Below, piece by piece: positions 18,501 through 24,500 of a stretch of DNA of 64,000 bases (position 1 is its first letter; every line of letters begins with the position of its first letter). The position numbers were made by a program. The stretch lies in the NCBI RefSeq assembly GCF_056712565.1, contig NZ_CM160072.1. One strand, 5' to 3'.

Positions 18501-21500
18501 GGGAATAGATTAAATGGTGTTCTGTTTATACAGGTTTATTTGTAGATCAACAATTTGGCATTTCTAAACAGATGTTTGAACGTTGCCAAATGTCTTGACA
18601 ACACAAGAAAAGGGCTTGCTATGCCACGCATTACACGAAATAAGGCTATAAAAACAAAATAAATTTTAAAATTTGCACAAACGAGAGAACTCATTCGACA
18701 AATAATAGATTAATTTTTAGCCAACAATTTCTGATGGTGCTCTGTAAGCCGCATTACACAAGGATTTGCGAAAGTGATGTAAAAGTGAAGAAAGTAAGAA
18801 TTGAACTTTTAAGCTACTTTTTCATTGAATTTTTAGTATGGAATTACACAGGAATAAGTTAGGGATATTCTATGATTTACACAGGGAATATAGGGGGATT
18901 ATGGCACACACATAGAAAGACATTACACAGAGTGCTATGTGACAAATGGATGTAACGAGAGGTTACATTCAGCTATCTGAAATGCTCTCTGTAAGAAAGT
19001 TGGTAGTAACGATATGTTACATAGACTAATTATTGAATGTAACGATATTACACATCGGAAGATGATTGAATGTAACGGTAGCTCACAGTGAACTAGGGGT
19101 AGGTCATAGTGAACTACCCCCACAGAATTCTGTTACCCCTATCAAGTCTGATACCCCTACCCCTATCAAAACTAATACCCGATAAGAATAAATAACACCT
19201 AGGAAATGATTTCCGATCTATTTAGGAAGTAACCTAGGAAGTGGTTTCCTACCTACTTAGGAAATGAGTTCCTACCTACCTAGGAAATGAGTTCCACCAA
19301 TACTATAATTAAATACTATAATTAAATAATATAAATAATATTCTTTATACTATATAGGTCATAGTGAGCTAGGGGGTAGGTCACTGTGAGCTACCCCCAC
19401 AGAATTCTGTTAATCTTAACTTTTAAAGAGATTTTTACCCTAACAAAATTCTGTTACCCCACCCTAACAGAATTCTGTTAGACACCCCCACAGAAAACTG
19501 TTAGACACCCCCACAGAATTCTGTTACCTATTAGATCATTTATTAAATTACTTATTAAATTATAATATTATATATTTATTTATATGATCTTTTGCCTTCC
19601 GGCGTTAGCTTCACTCTCTGGCAAGCAGCCTTACTCCGCTACCTTTGGGCTTCGTGGCTGGCCCGTTCCGCTCACACCGAAAGCAAAGCGTTACTTTCTT
19701 CGTGTAACTATCGTTGGCGGTAACGCCCACGAAGAAATACTATTGCGCTGTGCGCAGAAGAGTAATCACCTAACCAATCATACTGATTGCTTATGTGTTA
19801 ACTCTATCTCTCTACCTCGTAATTACCCTCCTACACTTAATAACTCTCGTTATTCTCTGTAGTTGTGTAATTACTCGAAGAGAGAGCGGCTAAAGCTCAA
19901 TTACACTCTGCTTTCCTCGTGTAATTTCACTAAGCCTCAATACAATTCCACTTCCTACATTCTGTAGTCGTGTAATTGTTTTCGGTGGAAAAGCCAGAGG
20001 CGACACCGAAAGAGAATTCTGATCTTATTAATCTTATCTATCTTAGTTATCTTACTTACTTATCTTACTTACTTTATCTACTTTATTATTAATAATAGCT
20101 TTATAAGCTCTCTGTAGCTCTCTGACGCAAGAAACAGCATTCAGGAAGGGAATCACCTTAGAAAAGTGTTCTTTGCGTCATAATGTGTTTTATGAAGGAT
20201 TCAGAGGTGTTTCATAACAGGAGTGTATAGAGGATACTTTAATTAATTAAAAATAAGGGGTCTAAATGCTTCTCTAACAGCATTAAGCAGGGTAGGGAAT
20301 GGAAACGCATTGTCTACATATATAAACTCACTACAGGGCTTTACAGAGCGTTTTATAAAGTGACTCTCTATCTTATATCTACCATCACCTTTTCATATAC
20401 CTAACAAATACAAAATAAGCCCCTTAAATAAGCCTCTGGCGAGCTAAACAGCCATTAGATAAGGCAATGTATTGCTTTTATCAAAATCTCGTTAGAACGC
20501 GTTTTAGAGCGTTTTAGCGGATAATGAAGAATAGCACTACACAGAAGAGCACGAATTGCTAAGAAAAAATGTAAGTGCATGAAAAAGATCAGATTTTTTA
20601 TGAAAAGGTATTGACAAATGTTTCTTTATATGTAATAATAGGTATTAGAGGGACAGAAAACATTCTTCTCTAAATAATCAAAATCAATGCACTTTGAAGC
20701 CGTCAGGCTTGCAAGGTGTTTTATTTCTTTTAACTGAATAAGGAGTTTTTTATGAAATGGTTTACACCGGAACACGTCGTCCAGGCATTTAAAAAAGGTG
20801 AGCTTACACGCCACCAAGTAGTAATGAACCGTAATATGGCAAGGAGTCGAGGTTATCCAGAGCGTGAAAAATGTTTTGACGATGCACTGAAAATTATTGA
20901 TGAACTGCGTAAGAAAGAAGCAGAGAAAGAATAATAGACAAGAGGAGGAGAAAACTATGAGCGAAACTAAGAAACCAATTCCGCGCACTTACCTACACGT
21001 TGACCCTGAAATCTTCAAGGTTTTATTTGCTGAAGCCAAGAAAAGGCAAATTATGGTCAGTGATTTGATGTTAGAAATCATTACTGAAGCAGCAGAGAAC
21101 ATCAAACAAAAAAAGGGTAAGTGATCCTCATTCACTTTAGTAGCGCATTAAGCGTGATTTATAAGGAGATTTTTAATGATTAATGAAGAACAATTTGTAA
21201 AAGTTCCTATGTGGATTCTAAAAATAAGCCAAGTAAACGGGCATAAATTTACAGATAGTGCTAAAAACCTTTACTGCTATCTGAAAGGGTTTGATCGTGC
21301 ATTTCCCTCTTACGCTAAGATAGGCGATGTTTTTGGCATAACACCAAGAGCAGCAGAGGAAAGGGTTAAGAAATTGCTCGAAATGGGGTTAATTATAAAA
21401 GATGCACGACCAGGAAGTTCTAATGTCTATCAAGTGGTAGATATTCCACAAGAAGAAGCTAGACAAGAAGCCAAAACACAACAAGAAGCTACCGTTAAAG

Positions 21501-24500
21501 CTGTTCCTGAACAGCTTCCCCCTACGGAAGATAATAAACAGCCTTCTTTTGATGTTCTTGATGATTGGGATGCGCCTTTGCCGTGGGAGACGGAAGAAAC
21601 ACCTGTTTCATCAAGTGAAAAGGTAGCTAATGATAATGAGGAGGATGTGTTAGAGAATTTTGCCTCTCTTATCTGCCGGCAGAAGAATACCAGAACAGCA
21701 GGGGCATCATTTATAGAATTTGCAAATTCACTAGCTTATAGACACGGGCTAAAACGACCAAATGGTATTGAGGCATATTTTTCTAAGCATTACCCAAATG
21801 TATACGAAGACTTTGATATTCCATTTTAATAAGGAGGGTTATGATTCAATATTTAGTAAAAAATCAAGTAGACAGAATTCAGTGTAATGACACAGGAAAA
21901 CGCATCTATGAAACGCTTGCTTTCCTATACAAAGGAAAGCCAACACCGCTAAAATATAGCGATGTGTTACATCGAGCAGGGTGCTCTGAAGATGGTTTAA
22001 AATTCTGGCTGAAACAGCTATCAAACTTCGGTGTTATTGAGATTAAAGAATTATCTTTCTCTACATTCAATCTCAAAAGACTAGATAAAGTAGAATTCAT
22101 CTATTCCACTCTCTAAAATCTCTCTATGTAATTAAAATATAAAAGGAAAACATTATTATGATAGTAGCTATGTATTGGTTATTGTTCTTTCTCACGTTAG
22201 AAACATATTTCGGGGTGTTTTCCTTTAAAAGAAAAGGAAAAATAAATAATGGCAAAAAGAAAAAACAACGTTGTTAAGAAAATCGGGGATTCAGCTTCTC
22301 TTCTAAGTAAACCTAAATCTATTCTAAGACGTAAAGACTTTAAAGAGCTAGTTACGCTCACCAAGCATAATAGCGCCCCTGGCGAATGGAAAACAGAGAT
22401 CATAGAACATTCTCCCTCTGTGCCTTGTGGAGATGAATATATCGCATTACAAGAAATCTTATCTTCAACACCTGGCGTATTCTGGAAACCTAGAAAAAGA
22501 AAAGAGTATATTGTTGATAGCTCTGATTTACGCAAATACCAGATTTTAGGATTTGAAGACTATAACCACTACGTTGGTTATCTCGCCACCAATGGCCTAA
22601 ATAATTTAGTTCCTGAATTCCAAATTTTAGATAATGCTGATTATGGAGACTTTTAATATGAACAAAAACACGTATGACACAATTTACTCACTAATTAATT
22701 ATTATGAGGATGATTACCTCCTGCCTTTAAACCGTGCTGAACTTGATGCATATAAAGAAAATACGCCAGCGGCATTAAATGAGGCGTTTAAACACTGGGA
22801 TTTAGCCCTTTCTGCCTTGGAGCACCTTTTTAAAAGAATAGAGATGCTCTGTAAGCGTGAGAACGCATACCTGACAGCCGATCAGATATGGGAGTTATCA
22901 AACTGGATAGAAGATATTGAATCTGATGTTCGCTATGTGGGAGATGGCCTTATCGAACTCGCTCAACGCTTAGGCGCTATCACAGAAGAATAAAAAAGCA
23001 ACAAAAAAGTTGTAAAATATCTTGACATTCCATCTATTGTATGTTAATATAATTATATGGGGTGATTATTTTTCCTTTATTGGTTCGATATTAAAAATTC
23101 TTCTTGTCGTTAAAGGGGAGTAAAATCTCCGCTCCCCGCTTCTCCTCCTTAAGTAAATACTGTGTCATTATTACCTCTTTCCTTTGTTATGCATACATCT
23201 TGGAGTATGCATAACATAGGGTAATTACATAGGTACAAGTTAATAAAAGGCGGCTTTAAATGCTGCCTTTTATTTTGCCCGTTATGCAACTTAAAAGTTG
23301 TATTTCTTACTTTAAACAAGGTAACAAGGTTTATATAAATGTTGTTCTTAAACGATAAAGAGCAAATCATCAAATATAAAGATGAAATGCTGAAAATTAA
23401 TCCACAAATTACCGAAATGGTAGCTAAATACGCTGGGTGTTCTGTCGAGGAAGTAGAAAGATGTGTTGAAAAATATTTTTCTCCTTCTTCTCCGTCTACA
23501 CCTTCCCTTAATGAATTAATCAAATTAAAAGCTAAGGAGATTACTAAATGATTATTGATTTAGACGCTCTATTTCCAGTCAGAAAGACTTTCATAGATCT
23601 GGTAAGTTATTGTACTGATCCGTTTGCCTCTGTAGAAAACAAGGTTTTTGCTTCTCTTCCTGCTGATGTTGAATGCGGAGACTTGATCACCAGCACTGGC
23701 GCTAAATATGAATCAGGAGATGATATCTATGTTGTTATGAGTGAATTTGTAACGGCTGGAGACAACAAGCCTGTAGATGTTTTACGTAGCAATGCTGGGC
23801 TTGTATGCATCAAAGCTGATGCGCTGAATGCTGTAAGTGAAGCAGCAAAAACAGCATTAATTAAAAAAGGCTTTCAGCTTGAAGGGTTCCACTCTGTTTT
23901 CACTTCTTAATAAAAGGAATAATAATAAATGATTCTAGGTAATGATTACGTTGATTTAGCTCCGCTGTTCTCTGCGCATAGCACTAGAAACTATCTGCTT
24001 TCTACTCTGGATTTTACGGATTCTGTAGGGGTTACATCTCATAAAGTAGCTGTTTCCCAGCTTGTCGAAAGCAACGAATCTCTCTTTAACAAAGAGACAA
24101 GCCGTTTTAGTTCTGAACACAACGTCACTAAGCGAGAACAAGGTAAAGAATGGCTGATTCAAATCCCTTACTTCCTGCGTGAAGATGTGATTAGACCTTC
24201 TGATGTTCAAGGCAAACGTAAACCAGGTACTGATTTCCAGGAAACACTCACTGATATTTATGCTGACTATGTTGCTAAACACCACGTAGCGTATCAGCGT
24301 ACAAAAGAGAGCGTATTGGCTGCTTCTCTGTTTAGTGGTCGCACCTATACCCGGAAAACTGATGATGTTCTTATCGAGTGGGGCAAGCTGTTTAACGTAT
24401 CAGCTATGAAAGCCACTGTGAACGCTTCCAGCACTGACACCACGAAGATTTTTAAAGAATTTGATCAGATTGCTACTGACATTATCGAAAAAGCACAAAG

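Follow-up and report, generated by a model that had tools for sequence, protein, structure and literature searches.

What is the function of a row of small genes that stands downstream of a dense array of short repeats on a chromosomal island, and which of their products recognizes the repeats? The question is raised by a stretch of 64,000 nucleotides from an Escherichia coli chromosome (contig NZ_CM160072.1 of RefSeq assembly GCF_056712565.1; the whole stretch is here referred to as the window), in which six small genes, named g1 to g6, follow such an array. We found that the product of g3 is probably the island's origin-recognition initiator, which would act at the repeats (iterons) of one type, type A, and that the six genes would make up the early operon of a phage-satellite-like island. 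This reading was reached from gene and fold prediction, from a comparison of related islands and from a group of phages that carry parts of the same genes.

The six-gene operon

The initial annotation had placed a leading operon of six small proteins at 20752–22993, and these coordinates were confirmed. Six plus-strand open reading frames (ORFs) lie within this segment, and the identical six are found in the RefSeq annotation of E. coli strain GPEC548.

20752–20934, plus strand: g1, 60 amino acids, in every island of the family
20957–21124, plus strand: g2, 55 amino acids, predicted ribbon-helix-helix protein
21176–21829, plus strand: g3, 217 amino acids, putative origin-binding initiator
21841–22116, plus strand: g4, 91 amino acids, predicted winged helix, present in only part of the family
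22249–22656, plus strand: g5, 135 amino acids, with a basic N-terminus
22658–22993, plus strand: g6, 111 amino acids, with the mechanical ORF start at 22634

A purine-rich Shine-Dalgarno sequence, read from the sequence, precedes each ORF by 5–10 nucleotides (from g1 to g6: AAGGAG, GAGGAGGAG, AAGGAG, AAGGAGG, AAAGGAAAA and GGAG). Against related islands, the ratio of nonsynonymous to synonymous polymorphism (pN/pS) is 0.24 for g1, 0.36 for g3, 0.13 for g4 and 0.34 for g6, and it reaches 0.72 for g5, which indicates weak constraint. g2 shows no variation within a type, yet it occurs as three in-frame allelic types. All six ORFs were accepted as real genes, g5 being the least constrained. Islands of a second lineage (lineage 2) have other small genes in place of g4–g6; what the operon keeps throughout the family is g1-g2-g3.

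Architecture of g3

The 217-residue protein had initially been described as a winged-helix-like segment followed by an acidic linker. AlphaFold2 (AF2), Foldseek, the Pfam family HTH_36 and PHROG agree with the winged helix, and the AF2 model also with the linker. In the AF2 model, which rests on a shallow alignment like the model of g2-g2-g4 described below, residues 8–90 form a winged helix of three helices and a beta-hairpin wing (predicted local distance difference test score, pLDDT, 70–86). Residues 93–153 make up a disordered acidic linker with 16 Asp and Glu against 5 Lys and Arg (pLDDT below 50), and residues 155–213 a small helical domain (pLDDT 64–82). Foldseek retrieved MarR/ArsR-type winged helices for the model, together with a weak similarity to RepA_N (4pql/4pt7, E ~0.09). 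The PHROG matches all fall in replication-initiation families, namely phrog_270 (E = 7.6e-11), the O-like phrog_391 (1.2e-7) and phrog_8540 (5.5e-6), and also families 678 and 428. By Pfam, g3 is neither RepA_N nor Phage_rep_O, and we filed it in neither of them; it belongs to a broad group of winged-helix, HTH_36-type proteins that are initiator-like.

The C-terminus of window g3 is VYEDFDIPF. Lineage-1 g3 proteins end in (E/D)DFD(I/L)PF whatever their winged-helix type, as seen in 116 of the 120 best homologue clusters, and two of the four exceptions are phage proteins. In E. coli, the tip of the single-stranded DNA-binding protein (SSB) reads MDFDDDIPF and recruits more than 17 genome-maintenance proteins, its terminal Pro-Phe fitting into a hydrophobic pocket on the partner (PMC7913777). 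From this likeness we infer that g3 shows an SSB-tip mimic at the origin and so captures SSB-binding replication proteins of the host or of a helper phage. Recruitment through an SSB tip would make sense for an island that encodes neither a helicase nor a primase or polymerase. No described initiator is known to us to work through such a mimic.

As a separate observation, the SSB of phage Mt1B1_P17, one of the phages treated below, also holds the motif (QNJ49289.1, locus L023:5862-6794). Its PPMDFDDDIPF is not terminal and stands 15 residues before the C-terminus of the protein (...DIPFAPIGLQYGRNFLHCF), and this SSB is the sole ORF of Mt1B1_P17 with a D[IL]PF motif.

The iteron array and its co-variation with g3

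The array lies between two conserved anchors, and each cassette in it consists of a run of iterons plus an AT-rich tract ending in TATATGATCTT. All features of the window array are given without strand.

18947–19076: E-type iterons, GTAACG-N4-GTTAC palindromes, two good and two degenerate, non-cognate for window g3
19077–19116: two C-type iterons (GGTAGGTCAYWGTGARCTA), with a second pair at 19353–19393
19134–19180: two B-type iterons (TACCCCTATCAAnnnTGATACCC)
19201–19350: four degenerate D-type iterons (AGGAARTGRNTTYC, 19201–19295) and an AT-rich tract (19296–19350), an internal, non-cognate cassette
19399–19524: five A-type iterons (ACAGAAnnCTGT palindromes at 19399, 19443, 19467, 19490 and 19513), predicted cognate sites of window g3
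19525–19591: AT-rich tract with the conserved TATATGATCTT at its end, candidate DNA-unwinding element of the origin

The window array is thus a composite of all five iteron kinds, with the A cassette last. The A-type iterons are spaced by 44, 24, 23 and 23 bp, and an extra single copy is present at 19122–19133. Two candidate sites for electrophoretic mobility shift assays had been named earlier. One of them, ACAGAATTCTGT, stands as the predicted cognate site of window g3, while the other, GGAAA-N3-TTTCC, is of the D type and occurs in exact form only once (19202), among the four degenerate AGGAARTGRNTTYC sites.

The comparison of g3 and the array covered 29 related islands. Six came from E. 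coli genomes and the others from IMG/VR, and some may be duplicates (L017 and L020 are identical). The N-terminal winged helix of g3 falls into five mutually divergent types, A to E, and that of the window is type A. In all 29 islands, the cassette adjoining the final AT-rich tract matches the winged-helix type.

g3 type A: last-cassette iteron ACAGAAnnCTGT, 23–24 bp spacing, 5 copies
g3 type B: last-cassette iteron TACCCCTATCAAnnnTGATACCC, 4 copies
g3 type C: last-cassette iteron GGTAGGTCAYWGTGARCTAGGG, 2–6 copies
g3 type D: last-cassette iteron CCTAGGAARTGRnTTCC, 3–4 copies
g3 type E: last-cassette iteron GTAACG-N4-GTTACA, 4–5 copies

Moreover, types A, C, D and E are each found on two backbones (with the tails DFDIPF and YDS[LI]PF), which differ in the C-terminal domain of g3, in the downstream genes and in g1, the last by 26–32%. 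Since these four types occur on both backbones, winged helix and iterons have moved together repeatedly. The probability of the concordance arising by chance is about 3.5e-4 under a conservative count of one event per type per backbone; a naive permutation yields 6e-16 for the full set of 29, whose members are related and in part possibly duplicates. We read the concordance as a strong comparative argument for binding of the iterons by the winged helix of g3.

Two further observations concern the array. The non-cognate E, C, B and D cassettes (18947–19350) are kept upstream of the cognate A cassette in the window, while other islands have the cognate cassette only; they may be remnants of earlier module swaps, or else decoys or sensors. 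In addition, ATTACAC(A/G) occurs six to seven times in plus orientation upstream of the array (18630–18930), and three to five times in minus orientation, as its reverse complement CGTGTAAY, downstream of it (19690–19975), which leaves the origin array flanked by oppositely oriented motif sets. These motifs could be sites for g4, g2 or a serine recombinase.

Promoter, leader and spacer

The operon had been described as following directly after the array, which did not hold, for a spacer, a promoter and a leader of about 110 nucleotides lie in between.

19592–20610, no strand: spacer of about 1.0 kb, 95–100% conserved (14 islands)
20611–20639, plus strand: sigma-70-like promoter TTGACA-17-TGtAATAAT, extended -10, 11/12 matches, kept in all islands
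20689–20732, plus strand: leader hairpin (13 bp, one bulge, 20689–20719) and U-tract (20720–20732), 20 nucleotides before g1
23022–23050, plus strand: second sigma-70-like promoter, TTGACA -35, 10/12 matches, just after g6, start of the late operon

The spacer is more conserved than the flanking genes in the 14 islands. It contains no supported ORF of at least 50 amino acids, no Rfam match and no meaningful phage match; a 92-amino-acid ORF within it was considered and rejected as not supported. With promoters at 20611–20639 and 23022–23050, the six genes form a bracketed unit. In the leader, the hairpin is followed by UUUUAUUUCUUUU and has a folding z-score of -3.3. Across eight islands the stem stays the same and the loop varies, which gives co-variation evidence neither way. 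By its sequence the hairpin looks like a terminator- or attenuator-like element before g1, and its position with the U-tract between the early promoter and g1 is a hint of control by attenuation or antitermination.

Initiator or transcription factor

Several points weigh against g3 as an initiator. HTH_36 is its only Pfam match and is marginal (E = 0.0011), with none to Phage_rep_O or RepA_N, and RefSeq names the protein "transcriptional regulator", "HTH domain-containing" or "LexA family". No family of helicase loaders, helicases or primases was matched by g1 or g4–g6, and the island has no DnaA boxes. The array stands 1.2–1.7 kb from the operon (1.65 kb upstream of g3), not in or beside the initiator gene, and at an array-gene distance of about 1.7 kb linkage could explain part of the co-variation. 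The co-variation sample also includes possible duplicate IMG/VR loci of isolate genomes, as with L017 and L020. Finally, lineage-2 g3 proteins end in YDS(L/I)PF, which is less SSB-like.

Some of these points would suit a transcription factor, with the arrays serving as clusters of operators for island expression or induction and the operon being purely regulatory. An operator-binding regulator would produce the same co-variation of domain and site, the RefSeq names are those of regulators, the fold matches are mostly to MarR/ArsR-type regulators, and a ribbon-helix-helix protein together with a second winged helix in one operon looks like a regulatory cassette. However, the arrays and the only strong promoter, which lies downstream of them, are 1.1–1.7 kb apart, and islands of all five g3 types have the same promoter and leader, so that specificity does not track the control region of the operon. 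The profile matches of g3 are to replication-initiator families, phased iterons beside an AT-rich tract have the anatomy of an origin, and the conserved SSB-tip tail would be left without explanation. Furthermore, in the precedent of the PLE satellites the phage nuclease targets an origin (PMC8263062). We consider a purely regulatory role unlikely. The initial suggestion of small DNA-binding proteins and a Rep-like initiator acting on upstream iterons finds support in the PHROG matches, the winged-helix model, the agreement in 29 of 29 islands and the model of g2.

Related domains in Stephanstirmvirinae phages

The g2 gene and the 5' region of g3 show 89–99.6% nucleotide identity to the phages muut, inny, Mt1B1_P17 and BI-EHEC (Stephanstirmvirinae, 146–151 kb). 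The phage homologues of g3 are QNJ49226 of Mt1B1_P17 (328 amino acids, L003:4040-5026), gp184 of inny (367 amino acids, L002:4232-5335) and a protein of muut (MN850573.1, ~81258-82253). They are laid out as a first winged helix, a linker, a second winged helix and a C-terminal domain of about 100 amino acids, and have no SSB-like tail; the linker has TVKAVPEQLPPTE in common with g3. The first winged helix is of type A in Mt1B1_P17 (83% identity over 119 amino acids), type E in inny and type B in muut (100% over 101 amino acids), and the second is of type D in all three phages. Overall, the island-type winged helices A, B, D and E are 83–100% identical to domains of the phage proteins, while type C, the commonest among the sampled islands, has no phage counterpart.

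The C-terminal domain of the phage proteins matches PHROG 681, "endonuclease" (E = 2.4e-18). Its Pfam matches, to MUG113 (E = 0.0012) and to T5orf172 (E = 0.16), are weak. In T5-like and jumbo phages it has homologues that are annotated as homing or GIY-YIG endonucleases. The full-length chimeric gene is present in only six phage records, a minority of the Stephanstirmvirinae. Clusters of the five iteron types were found neither in the 150-kb genome of Mt1B1_P17, where isolated hits were at chance level, nor near the inny gene. This absence makes the island arrays the likely targets of the chimeric protein, and argues against the protein being the phage's own iteron-type initiator. In inny and muut, a 100% identical copy of g2 lies immediately upstream of the chimeric gene, which points to the capture of a contiguous segment, g2 and the 5' part of g3, from an island. 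By analogy with Odn of phage ICP1, the phage chimeric protein is a candidate origin-directed nuclease against the satellite.

The close relationship of these domains also allows g3 to be seen as an anti-phage interference factor, which would sit on helper DNA while its tip mimic titrates the SSB-binding replisome proteins and blocks phage replication. The 83–100% identity of types A, B, D and E to phage domains fits with this, the phage SSB has the same MDFDDDIPF tip and a free mimic could compete with it, and satellites such as PLE restrict the replication of their helper (PMC7145576). Yet Mt1B1_P17, with winged helices A and D, has no iteron cluster in its 150 kb, the iterons are located in the islands and co-vary there with g3, and type C is common in islands without a phage counterpart. 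This role seems to us quite improbable.

The small proteins g1, g2, g4, g5 and g6

Structure prediction, which the initial annotation had proposed as a check, gave a ribbon-helix-helix fold for g2 and winged helices for g3 and g4 as modelled. For g2 and g4, AF2 was run on a single chain, g2-linker-g2-linker-g4. Both copies of g2 have a strand at residues 10–14 and helices at 17–29 and 34–54 (pLDDT 76–89), and the N-terminal strands of the two chains pair as an antiparallel ribbon, that is, as a ribbon-helix-helix dimer of the Arc/TraY type. The earlier ribbon-helix-helix call is backed by this dimer model, a structure prediction only. In sequence-profile searches, g2 had no match in Pfam (even at E <= 10), PHROG, NCBIfam or PADLOC, and a search of PDB sequences with the g2 profile gave chance matches only and no ribbon-helix-helix protein. 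The model supports g2 as a predicted ribbon-helix-helix protein by the structural definition, not by the sequence definition. A search of the promoter and leader, a region that is the same for all three g2 types, brought up no operator that changes with the type. Over 53 amino acids, g2 is 100% identical to gp185 of phage inny.

The AF2 model of g4 is a winged helix (pLDDT 79–91), which matches the C-terminal domain of CodY, Sso10a-2, HlyU and TubR at 2.1–2.6 A, and g4 is predicted to be the second winged-helix protein of the operon. Pfam gave no matches for g4, g5 and g6, and g1, g5 and g6 have no family in Pfam, PHROGs, NCBIfam or PADLOC. For g1 we set aside a weak NCBIfam match to "Rbp_regulator" (E = 0.006), which did not come near the cut-off.

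The island and its relatives

The operon lies in a low-GC segment of the window at about 16.6–29.4 kb, with approximately 37% GC against 50–55% outside. The island has an integrase and flanking repeats, as an integrative element has, and the two 20-bp copies of ACTCCTATTATCGGCACCAT set its span at 16595–29359, or 12.77 kb. It starts at a tRNA-Thr gene (thrW, after proA) and ends just beyond a minus-strand gene for a tyrosine integrase. In between, a serine recombinase gene on the minus strand is followed by about 2.4 kb that are free of genes and hold the repeat array, then by the six ORFs, a second co-oriented operon and the integrase gene.

16595–16614, plus strand: attL, 20-bp direct repeat ACTCCTATTATCGGCACCAT, 3' end of tRNA-Thr (tRNA at 16538–16610)
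23339–27839, plus strand: late operon, with 70- and 120-amino-acid ORFs, capsid-like gene, 67-amino-acid ORF, tape-measure-like gene and tail-tube-initiator-like gene
23929–24957, plus strand: capsid-like protein, 342 amino acids
25263–27092, plus strand: tape-measure-like protein, 609 amino acids
27126–27839, plus strand: tail-tube-initiator-like (or baseplate-like) protein, 237 amino acids
27919–29253, minus strand: tyrosine integrase
29340–29359, plus strand: attR, second copy of the 20-bp repeat ACTCCTATTATCGGCACCAT

The late genes again lead to the Stephanstirmvirinae. The tube-initiator gene has 84–91% nucleotide identity over about 100 nucleotides to some 25 of these phages. In direct comparison with Mt1B1_P17 (MT496970.1; 77777-80515 and 85841-86824), the capsid-like protein is 21.5% identical to the major capsid protein over its full length, the tape measure 25% (the phage protein has 662 amino acids) and the tube initiator 55.5%, and in the phage, too, the genes of the last two are neighbours in this order. 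When the capsid-like protein was searched by tblastn against all phages, only capsids of Pseudomonas PB1/KIL-like phages were found, at 24%, so the relation to the helper capsid appears only by direct comparison. None of the ORFs of the island was recognized as a gene for a terminase, portal, sheath or tube, and the virion gene set is incomplete, with only capsid-, tape-measure- and tube-initiator-like genes. The att repeats and integrase, the phage-homologous late genes and the lack of terminase, portal, sheath and tube genes together lead to the satellite-like reading: by its sequence, the island looks like a satellite-like element of virulent Stephanstirmvirinae myophages of the phi92/phAPEC8 type. 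The late genes further suggest that it may remodel the capsid and tail of its helper.

Of 5426 complete E. coli genomes, about 1000 contain related sequence, 144 of them with a coverage of at least 80%, and 20500–23100 is 100% identical in strain GPEC548. An Rfam scan of 16–31 kb returned the tRNA only. A degraded prophage remnant was rejected in view of the intact att sites and integrase, the constraint on the genes and the related elements in about 1000 genomes. P4-like satellites, phage-inducible chromosomal islands (PICIs) and capsid-forming PICIs were also considered and set aside, as the island lacks a primase-helicase, a portal, a protease and a terminase. The array and the small DNA-binding proteins could also be thought of as a partition, centromere-like module (ParR/parC or TubR/tubC type) or a packaging site instead of an origin, seeing that ribbon-helix-helix proteins (ParR, omega) or winged helices (TubR) on tandem short repeats define plasmid centromeres and that TubR is among the weak sequence and fold matches, but with no NTPase of the ParA, ParM or TubZ type and no terminase found in the island, an integrative way of life with integrase and att sites, profile matches to initiators, and an SSB-tip tail and AT-rich tract that it leaves unexplained, this is very improbable.

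Several side observations were made on the island and its surroundings. The gene for a serine recombinase or DNA invertase (17820–18359, minus strand; PHROG 125, E = 6e-55), which this island has in common with some relatives, is missing from the relatives L005, L006 and L008, and just downstream of it 17738–17810 has short matches of 85–100% to Citrobacter phage Tr1 and the E. coli phages KKE7M and 92CQ. Two truncated relatives, L004 and L007 (from E. coli ETEC6333 and 2016C-3878), lie at a second chromosomal site, between rcnR and thiM, which duplicates the thiamine pyrophosphate (TPP) riboswitch. They retain the integrase, the array and g1–g3 (in L007 also g4), the late operon is missing, and a GmrSD or HNH endonuclease is carried as cargo. 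Downstream of attR, 29360–35066 of the window differs from GPEC548: a minus-strand ORF of 1376 amino acids (30936–35066) and one of 174 amino acids (30286–30810, PHROG 11961) stand in place of the LysR pseudogene and paoD-paoC of GPEC548, which indicates either another strain background or a further insertion in the window.

Proposed mechanism and its meaning

The ORFs with their constraint, the predicted folds, the co-variation of winged helix and iterons, the domains common with phages and the tail motif were all computed, and they can be assembled into the following order of events. The promoter at 20611 would drive g1–g6, with transcription having to pass the terminator-like leader hairpin. 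The type-A winged helix of g3 would bind the five ACAGAAnnCTGT iterons at 19399–19524, and g3 would initiate replication of the island at the adjoining AT-rich tract (19525–19591). Its SSB-tip mimic would recruit replication proteins that bind SSB; these could be the host's own, with PriA, DnaG and the chi subunit as examples, or come from the helper phage, on which the island would depend. As accessory DNA-binding proteins, g2 and g4 would complete the set; g2 may control the operon much as CopG does, although promoter and leader are the same whatever the g2 type.

On a wider scale, we tentatively propose, with slightly less than even confidence, that the window represents a widespread, undescribed family of E. 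coli satellites, present in about one fifth of the complete genomes, whose initiator carries an SSB-tip mimic. These satellites would be engaged in a PLE/ICP1-like arms race with phages that aim two-headed nucleases at their origins, and would escape by swapping at least five modules of initiator and iterons. Searches of the literature, with an incomplete coverage that includes few subscription journals, turned up neither a satellite of these phages in E. coli nor an E. coli origin-directed nuclease. The SSB-tip tail on an origin-binding protein, the five specificity modules with their composite arrays, and the phage nuclease with two DNA-binding heads, like the setting of E. coli and Stephanstirmvirinae, appear to be new.

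If this is true, the type of conflict between satellite and virulent phage known from PLE and ICP1 of Vibrio cholerae, the best-studied case, would be brought into E. coli, where genetics, phage collections such as BASEL, candidates for therapy among the Stephanstirmvirinae and replication biochemistry are at hand. The islands would offer five orthogonal pairs of initiator and iteron as a natural set, and the phage proteins a second, independent case of an anti-satellite nuclease built from the origin-binding domain of a satellite. The SSB-tip tail suggests a simple route by which a minimal replicon without helicase and primase could capture a replisome. Moreover, avian-pathogenic, enterotoxigenic and Shiga-toxin-producing strains commonly carry these islands, which may therefore affect the efficacy of therapeutic phages of the phi92/phAPEC8 type.

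Comparison with known systems

Like the tip of E. coli SSB, the C-terminus of g3 has acidic residues followed by a terminal Ile-Pro-Phe. In g3, however, the tip is borne by a winged-helix protein that would bind duplex DNA, not by a single-stranded DNA binder with an oligonucleotide/oligosaccharide-binding (OB) fold, and it follows a small helical domain with a long acidic linker upstream of it. The operon resembles copG-repB of pMV158 in gene order, with a ribbon-helix-helix gene and then an initiator gene. Unlike CopG, Arc, MetJ and TraY, g2 has no ribbon-helix-helix profile match and no operator was found for it in the promoter or leader, and RepB of pMV158 is a rolling-circle nickase unrelated to g3.

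The lambda O protein binds with its N-terminal winged helix to about four or five palindromic iterons, which are approximately two helical turns apart and lie beside an AT-rich region. The g3 array is similar to ori-lambda in its iterons by an AT-rich tract, and g3 is similar to O in its O-like PHROG matches and in a C-terminal part for recruiting replication proteins. It differs from O in having no Phage_rep_O match, an origin outside the initiator gene and no P-like helicase loader that could be found, and in a proposed recruitment through an SSB-tip mimic, not through P and DnaB.

The closest parallel is PLE, the satellite of phage ICP1 in Vibrio cholerae. There, RepA_N domains and origins co-vary as swappable modules (PMC8263062, PMC7145576). 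Odn of ICP1 (gp88), in which a RepA_N-like domain (42% identical) is joined with a T5orf172 nuclease, cuts the origin of PLE and is proposed as a driver of module swapping (PMC8263062). The island resembles PLE as an integrative, satellite-like element of a virulent myophage without replisome genes of its own. In both, the initiator's N-terminal DNA-binding domain co-varies with noncoding iterons while the C-terminal part is conserved across types, replicon modules are swapped between backbones, and a nuclease of the helper-type phage uses the same DNA-binding domain. On the other side, the host is E. coli and the helper family would be Stephanstirmvirinae, five specificity types stand against the two reported for PLE, and the island has composite arrays with non-cognate cassettes and its own paralogues of capsid, tape measure and tube initiator. 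Compared with RepA of PLE, g3 has no Pfam RepA_N match, is much smaller (217 amino acids) and ends in an SSB-tip mimic.

The phage proteins resemble Odn of ICP1 in that DNA-binding domains of the satellite-initiator type are fused to a predicted C-terminal endonuclease domain. Their match to T5orf172 is weak (E = 0.16), and their identity to the satellite domain is 83–100% against 42% for Odn. Whereas Odn has a single DNA-binding domain, they carry two winged helices in tandem, a variable one of type A, B or E and a constant one of type D.

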